A stretch of 64,000 nucleotides of DNA. It comes from a virus. Below the pieces are notes generated by a model that saw only the letters and a program-made list of their open reading frames with translations, had not been told where the DNA came from and did not search any database. The translations under genes were made by a program, and so were the position numbers. This document shows, in pieces, positions 29,337 through 45,797 of this stretch (its first letter is position 1; each line of letters begins with the position of its first letter). The stretch lies in IMG/VR virus record IMGVR_UViG_3300044591_002613. The stretch is one strand, 5' to 3'.

Positions 29337-29630
29337 TCAGCCCACCCTCTTACCAGCACGGCTCTCGAGGTACACGGTGTTATCAGCAATAACCATTTTC
29401 TCCATGATGGCCAATCCAAGAACACCCGAAACTGATATTCCGTCAGCGGCTAATTTAGCTAGTGAAGTAGAACCCAAATACTCATTGCCAGCCCCATGAG
29501 TCTTGGGATTAAATTCACCAACCAATTCAAAATTACAATCAACAACAAGCCAGCAAGTATCAGGGCGACCAACCAACAAGAGCTTATTACCATTGCTCAA
29601 CTTAACCATTCCAATTCCACGGTCAATCAT
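29337..29630 (-). CDS. Hypothetical protein
   Basis: First ORF after promoter 29677. Confidence 0.6.
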   Translation of the reverse strand: MIDRGIGMVKLSNGNKLLLVGRPDTCWLVVDCNFELVGEFNPKTHGAGNEYLGSTSLAKLAADGISVSGVLGLAIMEKMVIADNTVYLESRAGKRVG

Positions 29631-29676
29631 AATGGCCCCCTTGTTTTATTCCTTAAAGGAAACATTTCCTTCCCTA

Positions 29677-29706
29677 TCCTTATCGACCAAAACAAATCTA
29701 ACTTTA
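29677..29706 (-). promoter_or_regulatory. sigma28-type promoter repeat 18
   Basis: TAAAGTTA-GATTTGTTTTG-GTCGATAA; A/T-rich upstream. Confidence 0.75.
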
Positions 29707-29769
29707 ACTAAAAAAACGAACAAATAAATCATTTTAATAAATAAAACAATAAAATGTCTATAGGGGAAA

Positions 29770-30069
29770 ACAATTGGTTAAGACCTAGCCAATCTGTGGG
29801 ATGTATAGATCGTTAATGGGCATATGGTAGTAACGGAATCACCTTTATATCTTTAAGGGGTTCATGCCTATAAGACGACCAACGAAGAGTGGTTACAAGC
29901 CACAGGACTTCGCTATACCAAGGATCTATATATAAGGAAATTTCTAGATTGCTTTAGCAATCAATTCTTAGGGAGTAACTTCTAGCCTAAACGCCCAGAA
30001 GTAGCTTCAAACTCAGGGCGATCTTGACCACTCCCAAGACGCTACTAGCTTAAAGATCTTCTTTTTTTT
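29770..30069 (+). ncRNA. Candidate structured ncRNA
   Basis: No ORF; at least seven nested or adjacent stems; ends in T8 tract; strand inferred only from the T tract. Confidence 0.4.
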
Positions 30070-30085
30070 GTGTCGAAAATAACCC

Positions 30086-30115
30086 TAAAGTTAGATTTAA
30101 TAGTGCCGATAAGTA
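30086..30115 (+). promoter_or_regulatory. sigma28-type promoter repeat 19
   Basis: TAAAGTTA-GATTTAATAGT-GCCGATAA (perfect -10). Confidence 0.85.
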
Positions 30116-30136
30116 TAGGGAGGGAGGAAATAAGCC

Positions 30137-30367
30137 ATGAATAACAGCTTAATAGACAGCTTTTTAGCAGCGATCAATACGGTATCTTACCATAATGCAG
30201 CAGAAGGCAAAAGCTATACAGAGGAAACAACCGCTAGAAATAAAGCCAAGGTGCAACTTCAAGAGCTAAAGCGGCAAATGGTAGAACAATACGGTGTAAA
30301 GGAGACGCTGAGAATAGCTAGTAGTAAGCCACATCTTGCATTTGCCGAGTTGTGTGACCTAGAATAA
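30137..30367 (+). CDS. Hypothetical protein
   Basis: GGAGG RBS behind sigma28 promoter 30086. Confidence 0.7.
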   Translation: MNNSLIDSFLAAINTVSYHNAAEGKSYTEETTARNKAKVQLQELKRQMVEQYGVKETLRIASSKPHLAFAELCDLE

Positions 30368-30392
30368 TTTTTCCCTATAGGAGATTTTTACT

Positions 30393-30494
30393 ATGGAAGA
30401 AGTTTACGACGAACTAGAAGATATTCCTGTATGGGGTGACGGTGTTACTATCCATGATTTATACGACTTTGTAGATTTCGAGTGGGAAGATTAA
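30393..30494 (+). CDS. 33-aa extremely acidic peptide
   Basis: AGGAG RBS; MEEVYDELEDIPVWGDGVTIHDLYDFVDFEWED; followed by terminator. Confidence 0.6.
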   Translation: MEEVYDELEDIPVWGDGVTIHDLYDFVDFEWED

Positions 30495-30556
30495 TCCCAC
30501 TATTCCCCTTTTAGAACTGGGGGCATGGAAATAAGTTCTATACTCCCCTGTTAGTA

Positions 30557-30593
30557 GACATCCCCTAGTTGCTGGGGGGTGTCATTTCTTTTT
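30557..30593 (+). terminator. Rho-independent terminator
   Basis: GACATCCCCTAG/CTGGGGGGTGTC stem then T-rich tail. Confidence 0.75.
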
Positions 30594-30716
30594 ATATATA
30601 GGAAAAAGTCTGTTTAGTTGGTTGATTAGATTAGGCATCTAGAGTTGATACTAGGTTTAGACGTCTTTTTTGTTGACTATAGGGAGACATCTTGTGGTTG
30701 GTTGACCAGATTTTGT

Positions 30717-30732
30717 TGGCATAAAGATTGCT
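30717..30732 (+). promoter_or_regulatory. sigma54 -24/-12 box
   Basis: TGGCAT-AAAGA-TTGCT. Confidence 0.65.
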
Positions 30733-30782
30733 ATAGGGAAATTTCTGTACAGGGGAAAATCTACTATAGGGGAAAATTGGGC

Positions 30783-30830
30783 TGGCACGGTACTTGCTAG
30801 GATTTAATGTTTTTGGAAATGCTCCGATAC
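30783..30830 (+). promoter_or_regulatory. Composite sigma54 + sigma28 promoter
   Basis: TGGCAC-GGTAC-TTGCT-N5-TTAATGTT-N11-TCCGATAC. Confidence 0.75.
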
Positions 30831-30876
30831 CTTTAATGTAGGAAATATATCCTACTACAAAAAACGGGGTGCTATT

Positions 30877-31278
30877 ATGTTTAGCAAGAAAAATACCGAC
30901 CACGTTGATACAGTTATGGCTGCAATCATGCTTGCTTTTGCTGGCAAGACTGTCCACAATGCAGAACTTAAAGCCTTCCTGACCACCACATTGCCTGAAC
31001 TATTTCCATCGGGTCGTGCTGATGGCTGCATTGAGTTCCTGTCCAATGTTGATTTTAGCTCCACAATGTCCAAGAAGTCGGGCGCTGCAGGAGTCGCTTT
31101 CCTTGAGGGCATTAAAGATGGTGGCAAACGCTACTGGAAAGTTCCAGAATCGCTCGACAATGTAGTTGCCAAGAGCGACTGCACAGAGCTTTCTGCTCCT
31201 ATTCCAACCAAGAAGCGGGTAAATATCCGCTTTGGAGAATATGTTGCTCGCCAAAAAGAGGAGGCTATTGGGGAATAA
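30877..31278 (+). CDS. Putative winged-helix protein, family A
   Basis: Close paralog of 32690-33091; behind composite sigma54/sigma28 promoter. Confidence 0.75.
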   Translation: MFSKKNTDHVDTVMAAIMLAFAGKTVHNAELKAFLTTTLPELFPSGRADGCIEFLSNVDFSSTMSKKSGAAGVAFLEGIKDGGKRYWKVPESLDNVVAKSDCTELSAPIPTKKRVNIRFGEYVARQKEEAIGE

Positions 31279-31295
31279 TAGATTCCCCCTATAAA

Positions 31296-31350
31296 AATAT
31301 CTTATGGGCTGCCAAGAACGGTAGCCTGTAAGATATTCCTTTACGTTTTT
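31296..31350 (+). terminator. Terminator-like hairpin
   Basis: AATATCTTATGGGCTGCC/GGTAGCCTGTAAGATATT stem. Confidence 0.65.
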
Positions 31351-31417
31351 ATTGTAGACGTCTGGTGGAATTGTGACAAGATGGTCCGGCTTATCGCCTA
31401 GACGTCTATAGGGAAAT

Positions 31418-31452
31418 AAAAAAAAGACCCGGAGTTGTTACTCCGAAGTCTT
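31418..31452 (-). terminator. Rho-independent terminator
   Basis: AAGAC..GGAG/CTCC..GTCTT stem next to an A8 run, at the stop of the 31438 gene. Confidence 0.6.
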
Positions 31453-31668
31453 GTCTCCCCTAGGAGGGGGTGGGGGTGTAGGATTCTTACGTTGTATCTT
31501 AAAAGACTCCATTACTCTTTTGTTGTGGGCGGCTCTATCAAATTTGTTGTCAATAGGTTGCGTAGTCTGTACAAGATTTTGCTGTGGTTGGTTGTCAAAT
31601 CTAAGTTCTTCTTTAGGCTCAGTTTTCTTTTTGCGATACTCGTTAAGGTCAATAACATTGTTAGCCAT
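31438..31668 (-). CDS. Small protein with NVIDLxxYRK N-terminus and poly-Pro tail
   Basis: GGAGG RBS; MANNVIDLNEYRKKK...PTPPPPPRG. Confidence 0.7.
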   Translation of the reverse strand: MANNVIDLNEYRKKKTEPKEELRFDNQPQQNLVQTTQPIDNKFDRAAHNKRVMESFKIQRKNPTPPPPPRGDKTSE

Positions 31669-31699
31669 ACTGCTTCCTCCCTTGTTTTGTCCATTATAT

Positions 31700-31747
31700 A
31701 TATCGGAACAATTAAAATAAACTAAAATGTAAGCAAATAGCGTGCCA
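31700..31747 (-). promoter_or_regulatory. Composite sigma54 + sigma28 promoter
   Basis: TGGCAC-GCTAT-TTGCT-N5-TTTAGTTT-N11-TCCGATAT. Confidence 0.75.
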
Positions 31748-31938
31748 AATATTTTTGTGTCCAGACGTCCGTCCAAGATTCGCCTAGGAAATTTTGCTTA
31801 TTGGGGTACCAACCAACCAAAAACTATAAACAGATCCCTATAAAAATTAACCAGAAAGGTATTTAATTTAGTTGGTTGTTACAGTATGTTACACACCCCC
31901 TCTCCTTGGGGGGTGGGGCTAGACGTCTGCACAATTGG

Positions 31939-31954
31939 TGGTATAAATCTTGCT
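31939..31954 (+). promoter_or_regulatory. sigma54-like box
   Basis: TGGTAT-AAATC-TTGCT. Confidence 0.5.
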
Positions 31955-31988
31955 TATATTAAGGCGAGGCGTCTGACAAGACCAGACA

Positions 31989-32136
31989 AGATTTGTGACT
32001 AGCCCAAATTAACTGGCCAACCAACCAATAAACTGGCTAGCCAGCCAACGCAGACGACCTTGGCACAAAGATTGCTATAGCAAAAACCATGCCAACAGAT
32101 TTGTGACTCGCAAAAATTAACTGGCCAGCCGACCAA
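31989..32136. repeat. 40-bp direct repeat (31989-32028, 32097-32136; 35/40 identical) flanking an inverted pair of sigma54 boxes
   Basis: AGATTTGTGACT-N5-AAATTAACTGGCCA.CC.ACCAA twice. Confidence 0.85.
32061..32094. promoter_or_regulatory. Face-to-face pair of sigma54 boxes
   Basis: TGGCAC-AAAGA-TTGCT-AT-AGCAA-AAACC-ATGCCA. Confidence 0.7.
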
Positions 32137-32159
32137 AACGTGGGCAAAAATAGAGGAGG

Positions 32160-32336
32160 TTACTCCTCCTCGGTTTCCTCCAACACTTCGACCTTACAAA
32201 ATTCGCTTGTCGGGGTATCGTGGTGTATCCGTAGGGTGGTGCCCCCACGGGAAAATTTAATTAACATTGCCCCCGTATCGGGGCACTCGTCGATTGTTGC
32301 ATTTTCGGTTATAAAAATTGGAATAAACTCGTCCAT
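32160..32336 (-). CDS. Small acidic protein
   Basis: GGAGG RBS before MDEFIPIF; hairpin at stop. Confidence 0.6.
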   Translation of the reverse strand: MDEFIPIFITENATIDECPDTGAMLIKFSRGGTTLRIHHDTPTSEFCKVEVLEETEEE

Positions 32337-32355
32337 ATCCACCTCCCGTGGGGGC

Positions 32356-32577
32356 TTAGTGCCCCAGGAAATTTTGCATTTTTGTGTCGATTTCGAAACC
32401 CTGCTCCACCGACCCGGGGCCTGCGTGGAGGATTTCGACGACGTTACCCGTATCGTCGGTACCAAGGATAAGCTCCTCCCCCGTGGGGGCATGGATGTGG
32501 ATAACACTCCTCCCGTGGGCACCCTGTGCAACGGAAATTTGGCACTGTTCCAAAATTTCGAGCAAGCTGTTAACCAT
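32356..32577 (-). CDS. Small acidic protein
   Basis: AGGAGG RBS behind composite promoter. Confidence 0.7.
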   Translation of the reverse strand: MVNSLLEILEQCQISVAQGAHGRSVIHIHAPTGEELILGTDDTGNVVEILHAGPGSVEQGFEIDTKMQNFLGH

Positions 32578-32620
32578 AGCATCCTCCTGTAGGGGGGAAC
32601 TACCCGCCCCCCTGTATTTA

Positions 32621-32668
32621 GTATCGGAACATCCACGGAAAACTTAAACACTAGCAAGTACCGTGCCA
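32621..32668 (-). promoter_or_regulatory. Composite sigma54 + sigma28 promoter
   Basis: TGGCAC-GGTAC-TTGCT-N5-TTAAGTTT-N11-TCCGATAC. Confidence 0.8.
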
Positions 32669-32689
32669 GCCCCCCGGAGGGGGAGGGCC

Positions 32690-33091
32690 TTAGCCCTCGT
32701 CCGCTACCTTGCCCTTAGCCACATACTCGCCAAACCGGATGCAACGGCGGGCCTTGGTGGGGAGGGGGGCTTGCATTGCATCCACATCGGCCATGTGCTT
32801 AGCGTCGGCTGCCGTGGTGGTGGGGACTCGCCAAAAACGCTTGCCACCGTCCTTAATCCCTTCGAGCAGGGCGATGCCCCGGGGGCCGGCCTTGGTGTAG
32901 CAGGATGCAAAGTCCACGGATGCGAGGAACTCGATAGCCGCATCGGCCCGTCCCCCCGGGAACAGCTCGGGAAGTCCCTGTACCAGGGCCTCCTTTAGGG
33001 CGGCATTGTGGACAACGTTTCCGCCGAATTTTTCGACAATGTAAGCTGCAACGACTTCGATGTTTTCGCGCCAAGCTGCTTGTTTTGCCAT
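32690..33091 (-). CDS. Putative winged-helix protein, family A (GC-rich copy)
   Basis: Paralog of 30877-31278; start MAKQAAW after GGGGG RBS. Confidence 0.75.
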   Translation of the reverse strand: MAKQAAWRENIEVVAAYIVEKFGGNVVHNAALKEALVQGLPELFPGGRADAAIEFLASVDFASCYTKAGPRGIALLEGIKDGGKRFWRVPTTTAADAKHMADVDAMQAPLPTKARRCIRFGEYVAKGKVADEG

Positions 33092-33135
33092 GGTAGCCCC
33101 CTGTTGTTTTGTGGGACACATTTCCCACATTATTA

Positions 33136-33183
33136 GTATCGGAACAAAACCCAAAACCTTAAATCCTAGCAGGAAGCGTGCCA
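33136..33183 (-). promoter_or_regulatory. Composite sigma54 + sigma28 promoter
   Basis: TGGCAC-GCTTC-CTGCT-N5-TTAAGGTT-N11-TCCGATAC. Confidence 0.75.
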
Positions 33184-33243
33184 ACACACACGCGCTTGCA
33201 TGTTTGCCGCGCTTGCTTGCTTGCTGCATTTCCCACATTATTA

Positions 33244-33291
33244 ATATCGGCACTCGCGCAAAAATATAAAATTTAAGCAAGCTCCGTGCCA
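33244..33291 (-). promoter_or_regulatory. Composite sigma54 + sigma28 promoter
   Basis: TGGCAC-GGAGC-TTGCT-N5-TTTATATT-N11-GCCGATAT. Confidence 0.7.
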
Positions 33292-33319
33292 AGCCTGTTA
33301 GTCGGCCAGCCAGCCAACA

Positions 33320-33470
33320 GGGTGTGTCGAATTTTTATACAGGGATGCCCAAATCGTGGACAGTGTGTCGAATGTTTAAACAGTGTATAAAAAGTTTACA
33401 ACTGTACAAAAAATATACAGTGTCCAAACCTTAAACAGTGTAAAAAAGTTATACAGTGCAAAACTTTTAG
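33320..33470. repeat. Iterated ACAGTG/TGTGTCGAAT motifs
   Basis: ACAGTG at 33360, 33380, 33417, 33435, 33453; TGTGTCGAAT twice. Confidence 0.7.
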
Positions 33471-33571: not shown

Positions 33572-34150
33572 TTAAAAAAGAGTTCGGACGTTAAACGAAA
33601 CGGTTGTTCGCTCGTTTTGCACCATAGGTACATAATGTCCAAGGGATGACGGAAATAAAAGAATACTTCCTTCTGCTGCGTAGTCGGTTCTGTGTAGTTC
33701 GTTTTCATAAAAACCGTTTGTTAAAACAAATGTAGTTGGATTGTTTTCGGTAGATTCTAATACATATAATCCGCTTATTCCGGTTGATAAACCGTGTGAA
33801 TGAAAGTCTGCACAATCGCCATGATTATAAACATTCCACCAGATATTTTGTATTTTAGTTTTCACCTGCTTTTGGCTCAGCACGGGATGGGAAGTAATGA
33901 GCTCGTCTATTGCTTTATAAATAACTTGGTCGCAAAAATTTGCATCAAAAAATACATTATTGTCAATGTGGTAACTTGTTTTCATATTCGACACCGTAAC
34001 TGCCGACCAGTTGTATTTAGCATCGCTTTGGTGCTGTTTGTAAAAATCTTTTATTTGAGGCAGATAACGCTGTTTTATTTCATTATGATTTGGCAGTCGA
34101 TAATGAAAAACATATGGTGGGGTAAATTGGAATAAGTTTCCCATCATCAT
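33572..34150 (-). CDS. 2OG-Fe(II) oxygenase (TIGR02466-like), paralog of 16954
   Basis: FQFTPP, WWNVY..GD...HSH, ISGLY, LFPSSLGH, RTTVSFN. Confidence 0.85.
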   Translation of the reverse strand: MMMGNLFQFTPPYVFHYRLPNHNEIKQRYLPQIKDFYKQHQSDAKYNWSAVTVSNMKTSYHIDNNVFFDANFCDQVIYKAIDELITSHPVLSQKQVKTKIQNIWWNVYNHGDCADFHSHGLSTGISGLYVLESTENNPTTFVLTNGFYENELHRTDYAAEGSILLFPSSLGHYVPMVQNERTTVSFNVRTLF

Positions 34151-34608
34151 TGCTTCCTAACAAACACTTCTTTTTGTAGGCGGCGAAAGACTTTTTCGAC
34201 ATAGAAGTCAAAGTGGTTCATGATTTCTTGGTCGTTGCTTGAATCTGTATTCATAATGTCGATGTCTTCGGTGTAGTGGTCGACATCAAAAACACAATGA
34301 ATAAGCTCATGGAATACTACTAGACGGCGATTGCTTTCGGTTAACACTTCTTTATCGATAATCACTCTAAGTTTTTTATCGGAGTAAATAGTACACTCAC
34401 CAATAGAGGGCCCCGGTAGTCGACCTACATATACTTTTAGATCGGTATTGGGAATACAAAACATTGCGGGAAAGTATAGTTGACATGTATCAAAAAATTC
34501 CACTACATCTTTCTGTAGCCGTGCATCTATTGTGTGGACGTTGCCAATATCCAATGTACGGCACGAAGACGACAACAACAGCAATGCCAGTAAAATTATT
34601 TTTCCCAT
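34147..34608 (-). CDS. Lipoprotein zinc metallopeptidase
   Basis: Lipobox-like SSSC; FHELIHCVFDVDH..IM; paralog of 8404. Confidence 0.75.
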   Translation of the reverse strand: MGKIILLALLLLSSSCRTLDIGNVHTIDARLQKDVVEFFDTCQLYFPAMFCIPNTDLKVYVGRLPGPSIGECTIYSDKKLRVIIDKEVLTESNRRLVVFHELIHCVFDVDHYTEDIDIMNTDSSNDQEIMNHFDFYVEKVFRRLQKEVFVRKQ

Positions 34609-34959
34609 TGTTCAAACCTTAATTCGTCTACGGACATAGGGCACTCTAGTATTGCTAGAGCTGTTTTTGCAATTATGAGGGCCAAACAATACATACTTTA
34701 GCCAAGTAGCAATACAAACAAAACAACTGCCAAGCCGACGATTACAAGTTCTACTGTCATTGTTTTATCCTCAAATGTTTGAATACGCCTCTTCCTTGTG
34801 GATAGGCAATTATTCCTTCTTGGCGGAGTAGGCGACACAAGTCTTCTATAAGATAGTCGGTTAATGCATTGCGTGACAAGCTGGCTTTTCGCTCTAGGTC
34901 TTCTATGCCAATCACTTTTTTATTGGCAGCTTTTATTATCTCGACCAATTCCTCTAGCA

Positions 34960-35343
34960 TCAAATTTCCTCGGCCAAGTTTTCTAAAAATTTGGCTTTTA
35001 GTTTTGATGCCGCTTTACCGTCGATAATTATTTCCTGCATAAGATTCATCCGCGCTTCGGCCACTTTTGCCCACTCATGTAGGGCTGCAATATATACAAT
35101 CAAACTTTCGTTTTCGGGCGTAGCGGGAAGGTCAATTAACGTATCAAGGTCGGAAGAAAGCTCTACCGTAGCAGGCTTATGATCTTTTGGATTCAATACG
35201 TACAGGACACTAAAGTTGTGCTCCATCCAATTGATTGAACCTTTGCAGCTTTCGTCTAGATCCTTCTTTCGGCGGTTATATAGGTCGAACATTATCTCTT
35301 TATACATCAGTCGGTCGTCCTTAAAGAGAGGCGCTGGCTTCAC
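34960..35343 (-). CDS. Hypothetical protein
   Basis: Operon ORF. Confidence 0.55.
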   Translation of the reverse strand: MKPAPLFKDDRLMYKEIMFDLYNRRKKDLDESCKGSINWMEHNFSVLYVLNPKDHKPATVELSSDLDTLIDLPATPENESLIVYIAALHEWAKVAEARMNLMQEIIIDGKAASKLKAKFLENLAEEI

Positions 35344-35665
35344 ATATGATAAATGTGAGGCTCAAATATTTGTGCACCTTATGGAATTCTGCTTGGAAGT
35401 GGTTATGGGTCACAACGTCAAACATATCGGTGTCGGCTACGGTACGCAACAAGTCGGCAGCAAACTCTCGCATTTCTTCTATAGACGGGGTGTAATCTAC
35501 TTTTTTGAGGGACAAGGGCTTAGAAGAAACAAACAGGCGGTCCCATTTTAGATTGAGCGTTGTGATAACTTTGTGAGCAGTTTCAAAATCAAACTCGGCC
35601 AAACACTGGTCAATAAGCTTGTCAACATCGGCTCGCGTAAGTGTTTGTATTAATTGAGAGTTCAT
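35321..35665 (-). CDS. Hypothetical protein
   Basis: EFDFE..HK....L..KW..PSIEEMR; paralog of 11184-11456. Confidence 0.65.
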   Translation of the reverse strand: MNSQLIQTLTRADVDKLIDQCLAEFDFETAHKVITTLNLKWDRLFVSSKPLSLKKVDYTPSIEEMREFAADLLRTVADTDMFDVVTHNHFQAEFHKVHKYLSLTFIICEASASL

Positions 35666-35692
35666 TTTTATTTTTTCCGCGTTGCCGTCTTA

Positions 35693-36106
35693 TTATTTAT
35701 CTTTATTTTCGTCATCTTTGACAATTTTTAAATGTTTTGCATCTGGTTTTTTAAGTTTTTCTAAAGGACGTTTTTTAGGCGGGGGAGGTGTTGGACGTTT
35801 TTTATTTTCGGTTTGTGGTGGGGCAATAGCCTTTTCTAAAAAAACTGCCTCAAAAATAAAATTGTACCAATCAGTTGCCTCTTCTTTAGAAGAAAAGAAA
35901 ATTCTATCAACGTTTTGAACCCCTTTTTCATTTTTATAGGCAAACTTTAGGAACCACGCGAGAGGTAATAGTTGTATACCTATCAGTTTGGCAAGAAATA
36001 TCAGTATAGGGTTAGTTTTTTTATGATTTATTTCTAATAGAACGGGCTGTACGTTTTTATATGCTACGTTGTATATTCTAAATGAAAACAATCTCATATT
36101 TGCCAT
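35693..36106 (-). CDS. Hypothetical protein with poly-Pro linker and HLKIVK tail
   Basis: RPTPPPPK...HLKIVKD. Confidence 0.6.
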   Translation of the reverse strand: MANMRLFSFRIYNVAYKNVQPVLLEINHKKTNPILIFLAKLIGIQLLPLAWFLKFAYKNEKGVQNVDRIFFSSKEEATDWYNFIFEAVFLEKAIAPPQTENKKRPTPPPPKKRPLEKLKKPDAKHLKIVKDDENKDK

Positions 36107-36202
36107 TATAAAAGCGCCTTCTAATAATCTGTAGATTATTTTAATAATAACATTTTACATACGCCTATAACTGCCTATAAATAAATGAAAATAAATAACC
36201 GA

Positions 36203-36466
36203 TTACAAGATATTCTTATTTTTCAACGCTATTCCAAAATTTGGATCTGCTTTGATTGATGTAAATGTATCATCAAGAATTTCCACTATTCTTAGCTTTT
36301 TATTTAGGTCGGGTTCACAGACCCATGCGCGGGCAAGATCGTAAAAATGGTCGTGTAAAACGGCATAATAAGTCAAATCGTCAATGAATTCACTCGAAAC
36401 ATTTTGATAGTTCATCATCTTGGCGATAAAATCCATTTGTCTTTTTTTAACTTGTAATGGAACCAT
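36203..36466 (-). CDS. Hypothetical protein
   Basis: Operon ORF. Confidence 0.55.
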   Translation of the reverse strand: MVPLQVKKRQMDFIAKMMNYQNVSSEFIDDLTYYAVLHDHFYDLARAWVCEPDLNKKLRIVEILDDTFTSIKADPNFGIALKNKNIL

Positions 36467-36832
36467 TTATTTTTTCCAAAATGTGCTACCAAGCAGCCTA
36501 ACTGCGGCCCAGTATGAATAAATAATGGGTGTATTTACCATTTTTGAATACCATTTATGCTGAGCTAAATTTTTCTTCATAAGTTCTAGAAAAATATCAT
36601 CAGCCTCTTTACGAGAAAACTCTGACTGGTTTGAATAGATACTATATAGATAGTCGTGAACATTAGCGCCAAGCGTTACGGAAAATTTAAAAAACCATTT
36701 ATCGCGTACCCAGTTTCCAAATTTTTGCGGACCCGCACCATTTATATGCTCTTTATATAAATCAGGATAGTTCTGTTTGAATTTTAAATATTCTATAACC
36801 GCTTGGTCTGTTTTATTGCCATTAATTTTCAT
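36467..36832 (-). CDS. DUF1353-like phage protein
   Basis: HDYLY...SRKEADDIFL...AVRL.G. Confidence 0.7.
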   Translation of the reverse strand: MKINGNKTDQAVIEYLKFKQNYPDLYKEHINGAGPQKFGNWVRDKWFFKFSVTLGANVHDYLYSIYSNQSEFSRKEADDIFLELMKKNLAQHKWYSKMVNTPIIYSYWAAVRLLGSTFWKK

Positions 36833-36988
36833 TTAGCCTCTTCTGCATCTCTAATAACCTTGATAATTTCCTGTATTTTTGCGGGACTCATCCCTTTTTG
36901 GATCAGAAGTAGTGATAAATGTGCAATGGTTTTATTTAATATTTTTATTTCTTTTTTCTTTTTACCGAATAAATCTAACATATTAGCC

Positions 36989-37291
36989 TCATGTAATTTT
37001 TGCTGGTGCAGTTGTCATGCCGGTGCCAGGACCAACAGTCACTTGGCTTGCTGGAGAACCCGCTGTTGGTATTCCTGGATTAACTGTAACTGCAATCCCG
37101 GGAAGAATTTCCGCATCTGTTTGGATAGCAAGCACAATATCTTCTGCAATTTCGGAAATTGCCGTGGCCATTTTCTCCCAAGAAGCGGAGGCTGTTTTAT
37201 TTTCCGCTTGGTCGCCTTGAAATTGTGATTGAAAAGACTGTAGTAGACGTGCCTTCATGGCTGCTTTTAGTTTTGCTGCTACTAATGGCAT
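36989..37291 (-). CDS. Putative tail spike/baseplate-associated small protein
   Basis: ATAI...V.PGI.....G.G pattern typical of small spike-associated proteins. Confidence 0.45.
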   Translation of the reverse strand: MPLVAAKLKAAMKARLLQSFQSQFQGDQAENKTASASWEKMATAISEIAEDIVLAIQTDAEILPGIAVTVNPGIPTAGSPASQVTVGPGTGMTTAPAKIT

Positions 37292-38332
37292 ATTTACTCC
37301 TTTAAATCTAAAATTTCAGCTGTTTTGTTGCCTATCATTTCGTTGTCATAAATCACAACACTTAATGGGCCTAAAGCATATATCTTTAGACATTCTCCGC
37401 TACGAATATACCAATTCCAATGCGTAAAACTTATAGTAATTTCGTAATTTTTTTTCTTAGTATCAACGCATAAGGTGCAAAAAAAGTGAACACTCATGGA
37501 TTAATTCTCAAAAAAAGAGTACCGTTGTTTTGTAAATCGTAAATATTTACAACTGGTTTAAACCATTTATCATTAATACGGTGAATTCTATAGTCACTTA
37601 TGTCCATGTAGTAACTTAGATGTGGTTTAATCGTTTGAAAAATTTCTTGATTAGTTGGAAATTGGCTCATACGTACAGTTTCTAAATATTCTTCGGATGA
37701 ATATTTAATATTAAAAACTTTGTAATCATGTTTATCTGCAAAAGACATACATTCTCCAAAATTAATCGATGTCAGATGTAGCTTTATTACATTCACTCCA
37801 AATTTCTTGTATCATCCTAGACATTTTTTGAGCCCACTCGTTAAAATCTTGTCCTTCTTCTGGCGGATCGATTCCCATATCGTATTTTTCAAATGCTCGA
37901 ATTTTCTGGCTTATATCGTATAGAGAAATATAAAGATTTCTAGCACGAGTTGTTAATATATATTCATTATTATCTTCGGGAAGATTAAATTCCAAAATAG
38001 CTTTCATCTTCGTCACCCTCGTATAAATATTTGTCATAATAAAGATGCAATTCACGCAAGGAGCAGCCAATCATGCCAGCACATTTACCTTGGCTTATAT
38101 ATCCATTGCGATACAAATATTTAATGATTGTAAATGAGGTACATACTTTGTACATGCGAAACAGTTCTTCTAACTGACTTTCAGGAGCGTCTGGATCACC
38201 CAGCACGGAAAATAACACACTGCGTGCCATGTTTTGACGCAATATTACTGCTTTTCTTTTATAGAGATTCATGAAAAAGCTCCCGTAATACCGCTGCAAT
38301 AACAAGGATAATAAAAATTACAAATATGTCTG

Positions 38333-39388
38333 TCATATAGACTCACATAGATTAAACAAATACATGTTTAATCTAAACATAGCTTCGTTCCAATTTTCTG
38401 ACGAGGCACACAAGTTTATGCGTAAAAACCCTTTCTTATCAGCTCCGCATTTTCGACCGTCCATGAAATTGATTTCAGAGTACAAAAACGCATTATGTTC
38501 ATCATTAATCCAGCCAAACATACCATTATCAATCATAAAATTTTTATTATTGAATTCCATTCCATGAATATCGGAAAATTTTTTTAACACCTCACGCAGC
38601 TCATCTTTTCTTGCGTCTAGAAGTTTTTTATATTCACTTCCAATATCTTTTTCCATAAATACTTCTAGCACTGTGGCAGCACGGGCCTGAGCTTCTACAG
38701 ATACTCCGCTAGTATCGTATTCAACGTATGAGTTTAAATAGTTGGCTAAATGGTGATCGCTGTTAATTACCGCCCATCCAATTCGAGATCCACAATGTCC
38801 TGTGCATTTTGAAAGACTAAAAATAGCAATTTCTGGAATTGGCGGCAGAGGATTCTTTTCCCAGTCAGATTGATTTCTAAAATACCATGGCCAATGATAA
38901 ACAGCGTCGTACCATACATTTGGCCAACTTCCAAAATTACCTAAAATTTTTCCGTCGGGATTATTTGGATATGTAATTAGTTGTACTTGACTTTCTGTTT
39001 GAATCTGATCTGTGATATTGGCATGTTGCATTTTTGCCATGTCTGGAATTCTAAACCAATATGGTTTTGGAACATAAACAGAAGAATAAGTATCGGCAGC
39101 CAATGCAAGCAATGCCATTAGCATATGTGTTGCGCCGTTTGACACAATAATTTTGGAGCCAGGCATGATTATATTTGGATGATATTTTTCGTGAAGCCGT
39201 CTAATCTGCAACTCAAGTTCTGGTAAAATTCCAGTTTTGTTATACGGCATCAGTTCGTGCATTTTAATAGATTTACTAGCCCCGGCTTCAAACAGCCCCG
39301 GCGAGGATTGCAGATATTCTTTGAATAAATCTGGGGCTCCAATCAATAAATCCGCACTCATTCTTTTCACCCTACTTATTTTTTGCAC
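38333..39388 (-). CDS. PLP-dependent enzyme, alliinase/TAA1-like (Alliinase_C)
   Basis: PNNPDG, YDAVYHWPWY, SLSKCTGHCGSRIGWA (PLP Lys). Confidence 0.8.
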   Translation of the reverse strand: MQKISRVKRMSADLLIGAPDLFKEYLQSSPGLFEAGASKSIKMHELMPYNKTGILPELELQIRRLHEKYHPNIIMPGSKIIVSNGATHMLMALLALAADTYSSVYVPKPYWFRIPDMAKMQHANITDQIQTESQVQLITYPNNPDGKILGNFGSWPNVWYDAVYHWPWYFRNQSDWEKNPLPPIPEIAIFSLSKCTGHCGSRIGWAVINSDHHLANYLNSYVEYDTSGVSVEAQARAATVLEVFMEKDIGSEYKKLLDARKDELREVLKKFSDIHGMEFNNKNFMIDNGMFGWINDEHNAFLYSEINFMDGRKCGADKKGFLRINLCASSENWNEAMFRLNMYLFNLCESI

Positions 39389-40104
39389 CTTAAATTTCTT
39401 TTTCGTCTATAATCTGCAATGTACCATCAAAAATAAAACCAGCGCCACGCAATGTTTGCTCAAAACAACGAATAAGTTCGTGGAGAGATTCGTTGTAATT
39501 TTCTGCGGTATATTTTTCAACCGTTTGATTATTTAGATTTCGGTGTTCAATTATGATTGTGGTTTTCATAGAAAATATTTCTTCTTGATTGGCTTGATAA
39601 CTTTTATTTTTCATATAAGCTCCATACAAAATTTAATGAACGATTTAATTGAGTATCTATTTTTTGTCGGGTTATTCCAGTTTTGAAAATATACTGCATC
39701 TTCCATTTTGGCCAGTAAAGATATTCCTTCTTCTATAGACAAAGTTGTGTCTTTTGTAAAAAGATATGCGTACTCTGGAGTTTTTTGCGCAAAACACACT
39801 TTTTTTGTAAGAGTTTCTCGAAAGTCATCGTCATTTGGGCCTTTTGGATAATATTTAACTAAAAGTATTTGATTGTAATTTAAATCTGGAGAATCTTTTA
39901 GAAAAATAATGCCATATTTATCCACAGCTACCATCCTTTGGCAGGATGATTACTTCACGTTTTACAATCCATATATTGTATTTATATATTTCATGTAAAC
40001 CTAAAATTGAATAATCAGCTAGGCAATCTTCTACCGAAGAATAAACATGATTGAAGTTTAGATCTTGAGCATCTCTTATAGGATCAGGAGTATAAATGGT
40101 TACT

Positions 40105-40575
40105 TCAATTAACTCGTTTTCGTTTTGATTTATGGCCATTTGTACGTGACTCCTTAGCTCGTAGGTCAACGTACTCGTTATGGTACACACCACTATGACC
40201 TTTGACCCATTCCCAGCTTATATTTTGGGATTTGACGAGTGGTAAGAGTTGTTGCCATAAATCTTTATTACGCGCCGGCTTGCCATTACAGGTTTTCCAC
40301 TCGTTCTTTTCCCAACGCTCTACCCATTTATTTGTAAACGCTCTTATAAGATATTGACTATCTGTTTTAATAACCACCGAGCTGTTTTTAGGCAGGCATT
40401 TAAGGGCTTCTAGAACTGCAACTATTTCCATACGGTTGTTTGTGGCGTGCTCATGATGACCGGCGCCTTCTGTAAGAGTACTGCCGTCTTCTTTTAGAAT
40501 AATAAAAGCGTACCCTCCTGCCCAAGAGTTGTGGTGCCCTTGAGAAGATGATCCATCCGTATATATAATGAACAT
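40105..40575 (-). CDS. rnhA: Ribonuclease HI
   Basis: IYTDGS, TNNRMEI, TDSQY, WVKGHSG..NE..D. Confidence 0.95.
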   Translation of the reverse strand: MFIIYTDGSSSQGHHNSWAGGYAFIILKEDGSTLTEGAGHHEHATNNRMEIVAVLEALKCLPKNSSVVIKTDSQYLIRAFTNKWVERWEKNEWKTCNGKPARNKDLWQQLLPLVKSQNISWEWVKGHSGVYHNEYVDLRAKESRTNGHKSKRKRVN

Positions 40576-41417
40576 TAAATCCCCGCAAACTCGCAGGTAA
40601 TCTGTTTTCCGTAGTAGCCGGAAACTAACTGTTTATTTTTTTCAATTCGCATAAGTAGCGAATTTAACCGAGCCTCAAATATGCGAGGACCAGGAAGTTG
40701 GCCAGATTGCGAAAGGCTATCCATACTTACAGTAATCCCCGTTGTTGGAAACAACAATGGGCCTAGTTCGGACAACATGTTGTATGTTGTTAGATCCAAA
40801 ATAAGCTGCCATACAATTACTGGTAGCTTATCCTGATCAAAGCCTGCTTGATAAGCCATGCGAATGCCAGAAGGCCGGTAGGATGTAAGTGAGAGGTTGA
40901 ACATAGGAATGTTTGCACTGCCTTGTACAACAGTTGGGGCTAGAACACCTGTAGTTGCAATTACGTTTACCTTGCTGATATTAGGTTCCCAGCTAATCCA
41001 TGAATCAGGAATTCTATAAACTAAGGTAGATGGGTCGCGAGTACCATTAGGGAATCGCAATTCGATGTATTCAACTTTTCTTAACGGATACTTTTTAGGC
41101 AACATTGGAAAGAAGCGAGTTCCTCCCAAGCCCTCATCATTGAAGTCTTCAATCATATAAGTGATGATTGGGCTGAGGATCATTCCTTGCATTTCTAGCT
41201 GAGAAATTGCCGCCTGAAGATGGAAGGCAACGTACTCTTCAGTAATCTGTTCATTAGTCATTGGGAATGTTTTAGGAATACCAACAAGACCAAATTGCAA
41301 AACATCGCTAGGAGTTACCATTTCTTTAAAACGTTTAAAACTACCTTCGATTTCTACAAATTCATTATCATCTGTGTTTGAATAATGTGGAAATGTAGAA
41401 CCGATATTAATAGTCAT
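40575..41417 (-). CDS. Putative head-tail adaptor/neck protein
   Basis: Y.AGF...LP..., GI...S.DSLSQS pattern; structural context. Confidence 0.55.
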   Translation of the reverse strand: MTINIGSTFPHYSNTDDNEFVEIEGSFKRFKEMVTPSDVLQFGLVGIPKTFPMTNEQITEEYVAFHLQAAISQLEMQGMILSPIITYMIEDFNDEGLGGTRFFPMLPKKYPLRKVEYIELRFPNGTRDPSTLVYRIPDSWISWEPNISKVNVIATTGVLAPTVVQGSANIPMFNLSLTSYRPSGIRMAYQAGFDQDKLPVIVWQLILDLTTYNMLSELGPLLFPTTGITVSMDSLSQSGQLPGPRIFEARLNSLLMRIEKNKQLVSGYYGKQITCEFAGI

Positions 41418-41750
41418 TTAAACACCAAACAAAATTTTTACAAGTAATGCTATGCCGCCAGACACAAGAATGCCAATACCCCATTTAATAAAACTCACTA
41501 CGGATTTAAATCCAATTGAATCTTTTTCAAGAAGATCTGTACGGCGCATGTGTTCTTTTAGTGATTCGGTATTTTGCTCAAGAATTTTTTCTTGTTGTTC
41601 TAGAATGAAATTTTGTTTTACCCCGAGGACAGCTAGAGTGTTTATCGTTTCATTAATTTTTACTAATTGTTCATCAATATTATGTATTTTGTCAGAAATA
41701 TTACAGATTTTTTCTGCAAGAACTAAATTATTAACAGATTTTTTTTCCAT
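41418..41750 (-). CDS. Coiled-coil protein with C-terminal TM (holin/XhlA-like)
   Basis: Heptads then GIGILVSGGIALLV. Confidence 0.5.
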   Translation of the reverse strand: MEKKSVNNLVLAEKICNISDKIHNIDEQLVKINETINTLAVLGVKQNFILEQQEKILEQNTESLKEHMRRTDLLEKDSIGFKSVVSFIKWGIGILVSGGIALLVKILFGV

Positions 41751-41807
41751 AATATAAATCCATGCAAAATTAATTATTAATTATAATAACATATTCATTG
41801 ATTATAA

Positions 41808-42365
41808 TTAATCTTTTACAACTATGGTAACGACTTCTCCAGGTTCTACCGCTTGATTTCCGCTCTGAGTAAGATCATTTATAAAATAAAGATATTTTCT
41901 AGAACCTAGAATTTGTAATTCATAGTCAATGTTTTGTACTAAACAAACTCTATCTAGAGCCAACATCAAAATAGAAAAATTTCCATCTTGAGTGACATCG
42001 ATTCTGTTTTCGACACATTGTTCGGGCGTAAGAACATATTGGAGTTGCCGTGTATTTGATTCTGTTGCTACGGAATTATATACAAAAGTAAGAACTTCAC
42101 CAGCTTCTAGAGCTGAAATGCCAGAAGGCGCTAATTCATTCATAAATTGAATGAATGTTGAAGAATTTTCTTTAACGATTTGATAATCTATGTTCTGGAC
42201 TAGGCACAATCTGTCTAAAGTCAGAAATAGCGGTGTGATTTCATGAAAATAAGTAATATCAATTCTTCCAGAATTGGCATTTTCTTCTGTTATATATATA
42301 AGCGATTGCTCAGTTGTATTGAATAAGCTGGGATTTATCGCATATGATATAAACGGAGCTGGCAT
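41808..42365 (-). CDS. Virion protein with internal duplication
   Basis: LDRLCLVQNIDY / LDRVCLVQNIDY. Confidence 0.65.
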   Translation of the reverse strand: MPAPFISYAINPSLFNTTEQSLIYITEENANSGRIDITYFHEITPLFLTLDRLCLVQNIDYQIVKENSSTFIQFMNELAPSGISALEAGEVLTFVYNSVATESNTRQLQYVLTPEQCVENRIDVTQDGNFSILMLALDRVCLVQNIDYELQILGSRKYLYFINDLTQSGNQAVEPGEVVTIVVKD

Positions 42366-42751
42366 TAGCTAAGTTCTCCAACAGAAATCTGGCCCGTTCC
42401 TGTTACAACTTTAGCGTAAAGTGTAATGTTTGACCCACAGGGGAGCATTACAAATTGATTTTTAAAAATATCAAAAGGTTGACTTTCTTCTGAAAAGCCC
42501 CAGACAACAGAATTAGTTAATCCCTGAAGAATTATGTATTTTCTGTTTTCTAAATTAGAAACGTTTATTCGTAAGGGCACCGGGGTAGAAGTGAGAGATA
42601 TAACTCCGCTGACTGCGGCTGTGTTCATGATATCTGTAGTTTGTAGATCGCCATTGGGTGACGCATTTACAAAATTAGTTTCTTGACCAGAGCCATTAGC
42701 TCCCGCAATTTTTATGGTATCAGAGGATTCTAGAGAATTTAAATCACCCAT
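42365..42751 (-). CDS. Putative virion structural protein
   Basis: Beta-rich, structural cluster. Confidence 0.55.
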   Translation of the reverse strand: MGDLNSLESSDTIKIAGANGSGQETNFVNASPNGDLQTTDIMNTAAVSGVISLTSTPVPLRINVSNLENRKYIILQGLTNSVVWGFSEESQPFDIFKNQFVMLPCGSNITLYAKVVTGTGQISVGELS

Positions 42752-42778
42752 TGAAAATAATACCTTTCAATAAAGTTA

Positions 42779-42813
42779 TAGCCGAGTGATTTCTCCTCGG
42801 CTACTACTTTTTT
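42779..42813. terminator. Terminator hairpin
   Basis: TAGCCGAG/CTCGGCTA stem with T tract, downstream of the 42838 gene. Confidence 0.6.
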
Positions 42814-42837
42814 GCATTAATTATTAATTAATGACTA

Positions 42838-43599
42838 TTAAATTTCGTGGCCGCAAATTGTGCAGTACAAATCCATGGGAGAAGTATCTCTATTGGTAAT
42901 TGTAACGCGAACTTTAGCGCCGGCAGAAACTGAAACGTTTTCATGAATGGATGCAAGAATGTTGGGGTTTGCAGAAGAGTTGAACATAACAAATTTAGTG
43001 ATAAAAGAACCAGATCCGGCAGCTGATTCAACTTTGATTTCTGCCTTAACTTTTCCTGATGCAGAAACATGAATTTGGGATAATTTTAAAACCTTACTCG
43101 CAGAAACGACATACTCGACATCAGCAGAAGATCCGGCAGCAACGGAGGCGGCGGAATCAAATGCATTTACTTCATCCCCTTCTGAGTCTACAGAGGTTAC
43201 GGGGAGAGGATTTGATGCAGAAAATACTTGACCATTTTCGTCATGGATAGAGACATCAAGTAAACGTTTGCTGCCTTGCGTAACGGAAGTTAGCCTTTGA
43301 GTCTGGGTGTTATGATCCGGACTTTCGCTACGTTCACTTGCGACCAAACCAACGTTACCTGGCTTGCTGTTACCAGTAGCGCTGTAAACGCCGTCAGGTG
43401 TTAATGCGCCTTCTTCGCTTAATCTTAAAACTTGGTCAGATGAAGATGGATCATTGCCATGCATTTCTACATGAGAATTGCCGTCAGCATCAACGATCTG
43501 GCCCTTAGAAGGGTCAGTAAAGTCAACAATTTTAGACTGTACCTTTTCTTGTGGATCGCCTTCGGTTCTAATAGGGAGACTTGAATTATAATCAGCCAT
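42838..43599 (-). CDS. Putative virion structural protein
   Basis: Ser/Ala/Val-rich beta protein, AGGAG RBS, own terminator. Confidence 0.6.
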   Translation of the reverse strand: MADYNSSLPIRTEGDPQEKVQSKIVDFTDPSKGQIVDADGNSHVEMHGNDPSSSDQVLRLSEEGALTPDGVYSATGNSKPGNVGLVASERSESPDHNTQTQRLTSVTQGSKRLLDVSIHDENGQVFSASNPLPVTSVDSEGDEVNAFDSAASVAAGSSADVEYVVSASKVLKLSQIHVSASGKVKAEIKVESAAGSGSFITKFVMFNSSANPNILASIHENVSVSAGAKVRVTITNRDTSPMDLYCTICGHEI

Positions 43600-43647
43600 T
43601 TTATAAAACTCCTAAAAAAATGTCTAAAGAATGATAGCATAAATTAA

Positions 43648-43833
43648 TCAAGGATTCATTTTTTGTCTCAGCTCTTCTTCTTTTTGGCTTTGAATACCAA
43701 TTTCTTTTTTAATCCTTTCAATCGCTTCTTCTAACTCGCAAAGTTTTACTTCCATTTCTAATCTAGCCGCTATAACACGAGCCAGTTCGGCGGATGCTTT
43801 CTTTTTTTGAATTTCAAGAGACATAACATACAC
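43648..43833 (-). CDS. Small coiled-coil protein
   Basis: Heptad pattern. Confidence 0.55.
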   Translation of the reverse strand: MYVMSLEIQKKKASAELARVIAARLEMEVKLCELEEAIERIKKEIGIQSQKEEELRQKMNP

Positions 43834-43835
43834 CT

Positions 43836-44576: not shown

Positions 44577-44579
44577 CGA

Positions 44580-44984: not shown

Positions 44985-44996
44985 TTTTTAATCCTC

Positions 44997-45758: not shown

Positions 45759-45797
45759 GGTTACTCCTTGAGCTTTTTGATAACATTATATCAGGGA

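Follow-up and report, generated by a model that had tools for sequence, protein, structure and literature searches.

A large, uncultured freshwater phage, of which a stretch of 64,000 nucleotides (hereafter the window) was analysed, carries in its control region five composite promoters, each consisting of a near-consensus sigma-54-type box placed 5 bp upstream of a weak sigma-28-type promoter. The layout is conserved in close relatives and rearranged in more distant ones, and the boxes are restricted to this region. The reading favoured here, with a probability of roughly 0.4, is that host sigma-54 polymerase would occupy the box in a silent form and compete with sigma-28 polymerase for the adjoining promoter.

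Architecture of the composite units

The 47-nt pattern TGGCACG-N4-YTGCT / N5 / TTWANNTT-N11-KCCGATA occurs exactly five times in the window (Table 1), at the places where a preliminary description had reported promoters of shared architecture, and it had no match in 100 shuffles, even with two mismatches. Both halves agree with the consensus as that description had held, the upstream one with the extended sigma-54 site YTGGCACR-N4-TTGCT and the downstream one with the FliA site TAAAGTTT-N11-GCCGATAA. The GG (-24) and GC (-12) are exactly 10 bp apart inside TGGCAC-N5-TTGC in all five units and in three further boxes that lack an adjacent sigma-28 part, so that eight sigma-54-type boxes of mixed orientations cluster within 2.6 kb. 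In all five composites the -35, TAAA(GTTT), has one to three mismatches and is followed by the -10, (G)CCGATA(A), with 11 nt between the 8-mers.

Stand-alone promoters of the form TAAAGTTAGA-N10-(T/G)CCGATAAGTA number about 21 in the window, on the minus strand at 6126-27582 and on the plus strand at 30106. Their -35 box is the near-invariant TAAAGTTA and their -10 ends in AAGTA, whereas the composite units have TTAATGTT, TTTAGTTT, TTAAGTTT, TTAAGGTT and TTTATATT as -35 boxes and a -10 ending in C/T; the greater degeneracy of the composite -35 had been recognised correctly. The sigma-54-type box is present at 5/5 of these weak promoters and at none of the roughly 21 strong ones. Sigma-70-type promoters were not enriched in the region (5 versus 6.9 expected), and a reading of the boxes as sigma-70 promoters, with TTGGCA as -35, was rejected since only one unit has a passable -10.

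Counting along the unit, transcription initiated by sigma-54 about 12 nt past the GC would begin inside the -35 box, as had been proposed, and about 28 nt upstream of the sigma-28-type start; the first letter of the -35 box corresponds to -5 in the numbering of the sigma-54 promoter. Published sigma-54 closed-complex footprints extend to about -5 to +1, and the predicted sigma-54 footprint therefore overlaps the sigma-28 recognition elements.

Table 1. Features of the control region (positions in the window).
Feature	Position	Strand	Description
Composite unit 1	30783..30829	+	Box 30783-30798, 5-bp linker, -35 TTAATGTT, N11, TCCGATA; predicted target ORF 30877-31278; orthologous units in L015, L016, L017, L020
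Composite unit 2	31701..31747	-	Predicted target ORF 31512-31694; orthologues L015-2110, L016-2003, L022-683
Composite unit 3	32622..32668	-	Predicted targets ORFs 32356-32577 and 32160-32336; orthologues L016-2627, L022-1306
Composite unit 4	33137..33183	-	Predicted target ORF 32690-33091; orthologue L022-1820
Composite unit 5	33245..33291	-	In tandem with unit 4, 108 bp farther upstream; orthologue L022-1928
Extra sigma-54-type box	30717..30732	+	TGGCAT-N5-TTGCT; 50 bp upstream of unit 1, then CTATAGGGAAA repeats
Mirrored sigma-54-type pair	32061..32094		TGGCAC-N5-TTGCTATAGCAA-N5-ATGCCA; boxes 32061(+) and 32094(-); 34 bp
133-aa protein	30877..31278	+	Conserved family, PELFPSGRADG motif; winged-helix-like predicted fold
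Paralogue of the 133-aa protein	32690..33091	-	Winged-helix-like; direct and inverted repeats between both genes
60-aa ORF	31512..31694	-	Downstream of unit 2
73-aa ORF	32356..32577	-	After unit 3; GGAGG-type ribosome-binding site
58-aa ORF	32160..32336	-	After unit 3; GGAGG-type ribosome-binding site
5' leader hairpin, unit 1	30838..30855	+	Starts about 8 nt past CCGATA
Equivalent leader hairpin	33110..33129	-	Other stem letters
Equivalent leader hairpin	about 32591..32613	-	Other stem letters
Terminator-like hairpin	31296..31337	+	Ends predicted unit 1 transcript
Terminator-like hairpin	31428..31447	-	
Terminator-like hairpin	32153..32171	-	
Repeat array	33320..33460		ACAGTGT / GTGTCGAA; just upstream of unit 5

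Genes and neighbouring elements

The structural model of the 133-aa protein (pLDDT 79) matched winged-helix domains exclusively, although weakly (Z 5-6.6; Foldseek E >0.1), and a paralogue of this gene is also present in G001, a complete relative of 169 kb (L023). Family searches with the 60-, 73- and 58-aa products returned no match. Leader hairpins begin 8-10 nt past CCGATA with differing stem letters and recur in relatives, a placement that fits the predicted sigma-28-type start as the real 5' end. Terminator-like sites are frequent in the region (18 versus 4.4 expected). Since no ORF lies between units 5 and 4, unit 5 would read into unit 4.

The box at 30717 is kept as a second upstream box in L015, L016 and L017, where its gap to the -35 is 44-55 nt, compared with 71 nt in the window. 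The mirrored pair is flanked by 40-bp direct repeats (31989-32028 and 32097-32136), and the mirrored element also occurs in relatives. The position of the repeat array is conserved in distant relatives (L002 3400-3650; L011 5570-5830).

Conservation among relatives

Among metagenomic relatives at 78-95% protein identity, the N5 layout was recovered in 19 distinct sequences from at least five related genomes, all of which keep TGGCAY, TTGCT, the -35 box and CCGATA. The distance from box to CCGATA is identical in 18 of the 19; the linkers themselves differ in sequence (aggat, taaat, agtgt, tacat, aacca, gtgta, aggca). The 10-bp spacing of GG and GC within TGGCAC-N5-TTGC was found in every one of these boxes, as were the Y before TGG, the R after TGGCAY and the T after TTGC (19/19 each). 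Box orientation agrees with gene direction in all five window units and in all 19 of these sequences. Samples containing close relatives include JGI 3300023179, those that yielded contigs Ga0214917 and Ga0129333, and ENA ERZ27275033.

At 47-63% protein identity, box and promoter are still paired in a changed arrangement, with upstream distances of 11-12 bp for reversed boxes, 10-38 bp for mirrored ones and 35-45 bp for those in forward orientation. Reversed or mirrored boxes precede orthologous genes in L018, L011, L002 and L008, the reversed geometry being that of L018 and L011; within its clade the reversed distance is 11-12 in 5/5. The asymmetry of the box remains sigma-54-like in all clades (TGGCAY then TTGCT, a pyrimidine before TGG, a purine after TGGCAY), and in over 40 boxes TGGCAY precedes TTGCT without exception, neither motif occurring twice. 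The 5-bp spacing that had been called invariant thus holds in the close clade, where boxes and N5 are kept while the spacer drifts, and is confined to it, because the layout is rearranged beyond. The search for N5 in relatives, which the preliminary description had proposed with lack of conservation as contrary evidence, accordingly gave a divided answer.

The complete relative and other genomes

In G001, 11 of the 12 boxes are concentrated in a stretch of 2.8 kb adjoining the array of stand-alone promoters, and a reversed-pattern control gave 0; some of its weak promoters have no box. This complete relative is without a detectable sigma factor, sigma-54 or enhancer-binding protein: searches for Sigma70_r2, the Sigma54 DNA-binding and core-binding domains, and Sigma54_activat gave no match, and Sigma70_r4 gave only weak helix-turn-helix matches below threshold. 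The two matches, corresponding to window ORFs 61922-62527 and 54087-54800, were considered as a phage-encoded sigma factor and not accepted, since they are below threshold and lie in the virion-gene (portal, tail-sheath) region. A T7-type promoter reading of CTATAGGGAGA was also considered; no T7-type RNA polymerase match was obtained in G001, nor in the control genomes.

Mirrored pairs of the same box were present in at least 119 unrelated viral contigs with a GC content of 30-68%, in which 452 boxes occur in 1.09 Mb, compared with about 2 expected. No member of the winged-helix family was found near the mirrored pairs in these contigs. Such a wide occurrence of the element argues that the binder is a widely shared host factor and points to host sigma-54 as a candidate for that role. 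A search of 185,579 bacterial species genomes with the composite pattern itself gave a single match, in a Syntrophaceae MAG, as expected by chance, and IMG/VR gave 0 matches; hence there is neither a bacterial precedent for the exact pattern nor a prophage that would identify the host.

Interpretation of the composite units

In the favoured interpretation, each unit would be a two-part control element whose readers would be sigma-54 and FliA, both presumably possessed by the host. The downstream half would be a deliberately weak FliA/sigma-28-type promoter and the source of mRNA, and the spacing of the 5' hairpin and the ribosome-binding site is suited to it; host sigma-54 RNA polymerase would bind the near-consensus site of the upstream half. 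As the phage group apparently has no enhancer-binding protein and every box carries the "locking" GC at -12, bound sigma-54 polymerase would be expected to remain silent, in a closed complex. Since TTGCT and the -35 are separated by only 5 bp, this complex would cover the -35 and the upstream contact zone, and binding of the two polymerases should therefore be mutually exclusive. The box would place five short cassettes, predicted to encode two winged-helix-like proteins and three small proteins, under a gate or brake supplied by the host. Relief could come by titration of sigma-54 on replicating phage DNA, by its displacement, or by a host activator that fires it. Several points count against a gate: why a brake should be placed on promoters that are already weak is not obvious, some weak promoters of G001 have no box, and the box geometries of distant relatives rule out occlusion there, so that a single group-wide mechanism would have to act differently in them.

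Among the possibilities raised in the preliminary description was a dual-entry promoter. Here sigma-54 polymerase, fired by a host activator such as a flagellar one of the FleQ/FlrA/FlrC type, and sigma-28 polymerase would both produce the same mRNA from starts about 28 nt apart, giving expression of the cassette with or without free FliA. Polar flagellar cascades use this pair of sigma factors, and the agreement of box orientation with gene direction in the window and the close relatives is as dual entry would have it. The reversed and mirrored boxes of distant relatives, in contrast, would transcribe away, into non-coding or antisense DNA, and being unfit for dual entry they suggest that the box is there to be bound and not to start the downstream mRNA. 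The phage relative, moreover, has no activator gene, no shared upstream activator site was recognised, unit 3 starts only 22 nt past the stop of the preceding gene, and the leader hairpins are positioned for a sigma-28-type start. The proposal that either sigma factor starts the same mRNA thus fails across the group, and dual entry is considered unlikely; that the genes are the first expressed and sense the developmental state of the host likewise found no support in the form given.

The other two alternatives, both of which are judged slightly less likely still, keep the box as a binding site. It could be an operator for a protein other than sigma-54, such as the winged-helix-like product of the cassettes, which would regulate itself from two TKGCW half-sites. 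TGGCA and TTGCT are indeed similar half-sites 11 bp, or one helical turn, apart, the boxes, like operators, are found in both orientations and as four-part palindromes, and two cassette genes encode proteins of this kind; against this, the order of the two motifs is fixed, the mirrored element is abundant in viruses without the family nearby, the agreement with the sigma-54 consensus extends over 13-14 positions, the flanking Y and R among them, and the fold match is weak (Z <7). Alternatively, the boxes could only soak up host sigma-54 polymerase and shut down sigma-54-dependent host responses, adjoining promoters because intergenic space is found there, with an N5 that is functionless and inherited through cassette duplication. 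Such a sink would accommodate the clustering of boxes in any orientation in the window and in G001, the lack of an activator gene in the relative, the similar clusters that are widespread in unrelated phages, and the plasticity of orientation and distance among clades. A pure sink, however, would have no need to abut a -35 box, nor does it account for distances that stay fixed within a clade despite spacer divergence, or for boxes confined to the weak promoter class.

Comparison with known systems

The upstream half shares with bacterial RpoN -24/-12 promoters (glnAp2, pspA, flagellar class II/III) the YTGGCACR-N4-TTGCT consensus with GG and GC 10 bp apart and, in this clade, the direction toward the downstream gene. 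Sigma-54 promoters require an AAA+ enhancer-binding protein that acts from an upstream activator site, and neither a gene for such a protein in the complete relative nor such a site was recognised here; the phage box further differs in abutting another promoter and in having reversed and mirrored copies in distant relatives. The downstream half has the two boxes and the spacing of FliA/SigD (sigma-28) promoters, 30-50 nt before the start codon, and is distinguished by its occurrence in about 26 copies in a lytic phage, five of them composites with weakened -35 and -10.

Overlapping sigma54/sigma70 promoters occur at glmY. The likeness of the phage units to such overlaps in E. coli would lie in a silent closed complex on shared DNA, with the GC at -12 retained. 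In E. coli, sigma-54 polymerase competes for binding at sigma-70 promoters that overlap its own sites and so represses them, as at argT, chaC, mdfA and patA, and this repression correlates with C at -12 (PMC4551910). The competition is an E. coli finding, and the phage arrangement differs in that the partner is sigma-28-type, the box is fixed 5 bp upstream of the -35, and the unit is phage-borne and repeated five times. At Po/Pr of Pseudomonas putida CF600, Johansson et al. reportedly found in 2008 that sigma-54 polymerase at Po stimulates a divergent, non-overlapping weak sigma-70 promoter. This resembles the reversed geometry of L018 and L011, with a divergent sigma-54 site just upstream of a weak promoter, but it is not the geometry of the window, the distances are different and the effect is positive. 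The PeSL (promoter-early stem-loop) cassettes of T4-type phages are likewise short, terminator-bounded units of one or two genes with a repeated promoter module and stem-loop in many copies; the units described here are sigma-28-like instead of sigma-70 and have the sigma-54 box in addition.

Implications

Phage early transcription is usually described in terms of sigma-70 promoters or of phage-encoded polymerases and sigma factors. In the present lytic group, FliA-type promoters appear to drive the non-structural genes and consensus sigma-54 sites to be kept in a small head region, and neither factor nor an activator appears to be encoded. If sigma-54 polymerase binds the boxes, the units would provide a clear example from nature of a promoter of one alternative sigma factor being controlled in cis by the holoenzyme of another, in five repeats with conserved geometry, and would be linked to a much wider pattern in which control regions of diverse phages contain sigma-54 boxes; no description of this pattern was found, and a literature search on phage sigma-54/sigma-28 promoters gave nothing relevant.

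A broader speculation, regarded as improbable, is that many unrelated phages, the present one among them, use the silent host sigma-54 polymerase as a ready-made DNA-bound regulator. High-affinity single, reversed or mirrored boxes by early promoters would then lock polymerase, and phage replication would titrate the limited sigma-54 pool; the boxes would serve both as a copy-number timer and to shut down the sigma-54 stress regulons of the host, and the N5 composite would be the most tightly coupled version. As the two consensus sequences are universal, the units could be studied on synthetic DNA with standard proteins from E. coli, Salmonella or Vibrio despite the uncultured host.

Regarding the phage itself, no tRNA genes and no cyanobacterial HIP1 sites were detected in the window, and a megablast of the window against a phage collection gave no match. 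The portal gene showed only a distant likeness to those of Mx1 and SPO1-type phages. A 5-hmdU kinase domain is located at 54797-55726, and the DNA of this phage may contain hypermodified thymidine, which could change its recognition by host factors.

Results

Composite promoters in the head region

A search of the window for TGGCACG-N4-YTGCT / N5 / TTWANNTT-N11-KCCGATA, which joins a sigma54-type -24/-12 site (the box), a 5-bp linker and a weak sigma28 (FliA)-type promoter, returned exactly five matches, against none in 100 shuffles even with up to two mismatches permitted; the five promoters of shared architecture proposed in the preliminary description are thus confirmed, far beyond chance. 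Their -35 elements were, as had been claimed, more degenerate than those of the stand-alone copies, and the -10 elements likewise. Three sigma54-like boxes in the window had no adjoining sigma28 part, and the mirrored pair lies between 40-bp direct repeats (31989-32028 and 32097-32136). The exact composite pattern had a single match in 185,579 bacterial species genomes, as expected by chance, and none in IMG/VR. Adjacent or overlapping sigma54 and sigma70-family promoters are already known in bacteria; a repeated sigma54/sigma28 unit in a phage is apparently unreported, literature searches having found no such report.

Promoters, boxes and winged-helix-like genes in the window and in metagenomic relative contigs (L numbers)
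Feature	Position	Strand or orientation	Basis and remarks
Composite unit 1	30783-30829	+	exact pattern match; drives 133-aa protein 30877-31278
Composite unit 2	31701-31747	-	exact pattern match; drives 60-aa ORF
Composite unit 3	32622-32668	-	exact pattern match; drives two small ORFs
Composite unit 4	33137-33183	-	exact pattern match; drives 32690-33091, paralogue of 133-aa protein
Composite unit 5	33245-33291	-	exact match; in tandem with unit 4, 108 bp upstream of it, no ORF between
Extra sigma54-like box	30717	+	pattern scan; sigma28 part absent
Mirrored pair, overlapping boxes 32061+ and 32094-	32061-32094 (34 bp)	both	TGGCAC-N5-TTGCTATAGCAA-N5-ATGCCA
Stand-alone promoters	6126-27582; 30106	-; +	pattern TAAAGTTAGA ... 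CCGATAAGTA
Winged-helix-like family, window	30877-31278; 32690-33091	+; -	sequence
Winged-helix-like family, L002	3788-4216; 7038-7559		sequence
Box, L018 and L011	11-12 bp upstream of -35 box	reversed	5/5 cases
Box, L002	10, 20 or 38 bp upstream	mirrored pair	contig comparison
Box, L005	35-45 bp upstream	forward	contig comparison
Box, L008	40 bp upstream	reversed	contig comparison

The window belongs to a large, uncultured tailed phage and encodes a portal protein (PF04860) and a tail sheath; the portal showed distant likeness only to Myxococcus phage Mx1 and SPO1-type phages, and no near match to the window was found among sequenced phages. The 3.7-kb head region (29600-33300) is rich in repeats and poor in genes, is flanked by a minus-strand gene block (33572-46788) on one side and by a long array of small genes, likewise on the minus strand, on the other, and has a GC peak of 48% compared to about 38% elsewhere; sigma70-type promoters were not enriched in it. 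The protein encoded at 54797-55726(+) matches PF18723 (5-hmdU DNA kinase, helical domain; E 1.5e-22), which suggests that the phage DNA probably carries hypermodified thymidine, a modification that could change recognition by host proteins and is relevant to binding tests on synthetic DNA.

Every composite starts a short cassette closed by a terminator-like hairpin (18 such sites found vs 4.4 expected). No cassette protein had a Pfam match. The predicted fold of the 133-aa family is a winged-helix-like domain (pLDDT 79), and its structural matches, all winged-helix domains, were weak (Z 5-6.6; Foldseek E above 0.1). The family carries an invariant PELFPSGRADG and has 2-3 paralogues per genome, always within the head region; the GC of some copies is far above that found elsewhere in the phage. 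A hairpin beginning 8-10 nt past CCGATA is present in three of the five window leaders and in both L017 leaders that were folded, with stem letters varying by copy (GUAGGA, GUGGGA, GGGGGG, GUAAGC). This placement is consistent with transcripts that begin at the sigma28-type promoter and carry a stem-loop at the 5' end.

About 21 stand-alone promoters, TAAAGTTAGA-N10-(T/G)CCGATAAGTA, stand at the head of the small-gene array, with exactly the FliA consensus spacing (TAAA-N15-GCCGATAA). In the window, the box was present at all five weaker promoters and at none of the stand-alone ones. The latter have 10 + 10 invariant letters, exceeding what the FliA consensus needs, and both extensions are missing from all five composites. 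The two look like distinct promoter classes, which may differ in reader or timing.

Conservation in relatives

Metagenomic homologues of the 133-aa protein formed 20 clusters (47-90% identity), whose contigs were fetched as relatives. The close clade (L015, L016, L017, L020, L021 and L022; 78-95% identity) contained 19 different composite sequences, corresponding to the five window promoters and to further ones. The conserved parts were TGGCAY, TTGCT, the -35 box and CCGATA, and the distance from box to CCGATA was the same in 18 of the 19, the remaining one having a 12-nt sigma28 spacer, while the internal N5, the linker (seven versions) and the N11 spacer varied freely; this is the pattern that would be expected under selection on both boxes and their distance. 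In distant relatives, box and sigma28-type promoter are still paired before orthologous genes but in reversed, mirrored or more distant layouts, and some weak L002 promoters have no box. The 5-bp spacing, previously described as invariant, thus holds as a property of one clade and not of the whole phage group.

In G001, a 169-kb IMG/VR contig that contains L002 and is complete according to CheckV, 11 of 12 boxes fell inside 2.8 kb (102123-104938), followed by 17 stand-alone promoters (106679-135427); reversed-pattern controls gave none. G001 had no match to Sigma70_r2, Sigma54 DNA-binding, Sigma54 core-binding or Sigma54_activat domains, and none to T7-type RNA polymerase, a search made uninformative by control genomes that likewise gave none. 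Two weak, below-threshold Sigma70_r4-like helix-turn-helix matches correspond to ORFs 61922-62527 and 54087-54800 of the window, which lie among its virion genes (portal, tail-sheath). Given the lack of sigma or activator domain matches in G001, both elements would most simply be read by host factors.

Discussion

The box agrees with the sigma54 consensus at 13-14 positions, flanking pyrimidine and purine included, and its asymmetry is constant, with TGGCAY always preceding TTGCT. In IMG/VR, the mirrored form (TGGCAY-N5-TTGC-N4-GCAA-N5-RTGCCA) was found at no fewer than 119 loci in unrelated contigs whose GC spans 30-68%, and more boxes usually lay close by. Among the matches listed, 452 boxes occurred in 1.09 Mb, compared to about two expected, and neither the winged-helix family nor a nearby sigma28-like promoter was found. 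Since the element is common to such different phages, its binder is best explained as a widely shared host protein, namely sigma54. That another protein binds the box seems improbable, being disfavoured by the strict asymmetry and the spread across unrelated phages.

Counted from the GC at -12, the sigma54 start falls within the sigma28 -35 box, as the preliminary description had predicted; numbered on the sigma54 promoter, the -35 box starts at -5, so that in this clade the two polymerases should exclude each other. Host sigma54 polymerase on the box would form a silent complex that occludes the sigma28-type promoter, a tentative reading to which we assign a probability of about 0.4. A silent complex is preferred to a second productive promoter because no activator gene was found in G001, because all boxes share the consensus GC at -12, and because the leader hairpins suit a sigma28-type start. 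In E. coli, GC at -12 goes with locked sigma54 complexes and local repression (PMC4551910). The earlier interpretation is supported in part. A dual-entry promoter, with both halves productive, agrees with the co-orientation of box and promoter here but not with those relatives in which the box is reversed or mirrored, and is unlikely. Slighter still is the chance that the boxes merely act as a sink for sigma54 with incidental spacing, which would leave unexplained both the fixed within-clade distances and the limitation of boxes to weak promoters. The reversed-box geometry of relatives resembles the Po/Pr pair of Pseudomonas putida, in which sigma54 polymerase reportedly stimulates a divergent weak promoter, and by this analogy the sign of the effect of the box may differ between clades.

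Other repeats were also observed. In L002 (4860-5960), the order in each head cassette is terminator, palindrome TTAACAGAATTCTGTTA, mirrored box pair, one to three CTGTTAT boxes and promoter; its minus-strand head cassettes have AACAGAG boxes and no sigma54 box. All six copies of CTATAGGG(A/G)A lie in the head region (29758, 30380 on the minus strand, 30677, 30731, 30764 and 31406), the copy at 30677 being CTATAGGGAGA, with letters identical to the T7 promoter core. The palindrome AGACGTCT has four head-region copies (30659, 31356, 31400 and 31921) and a fifth half-copy (31763); two of the 11 AGACGTC matches in the window fall outside this region. An array of ACAGTGT / GTGTCGAA / TGTACA, about 20 nt apart (window 33320-33460; L002 3400-3650; L011 5570-5830), marks the border at which the head region meets the late-looking gene block, a position kept in distant relatives; it may serve as a landing pad for an activator or as an origin of replication, or may be a genome end.
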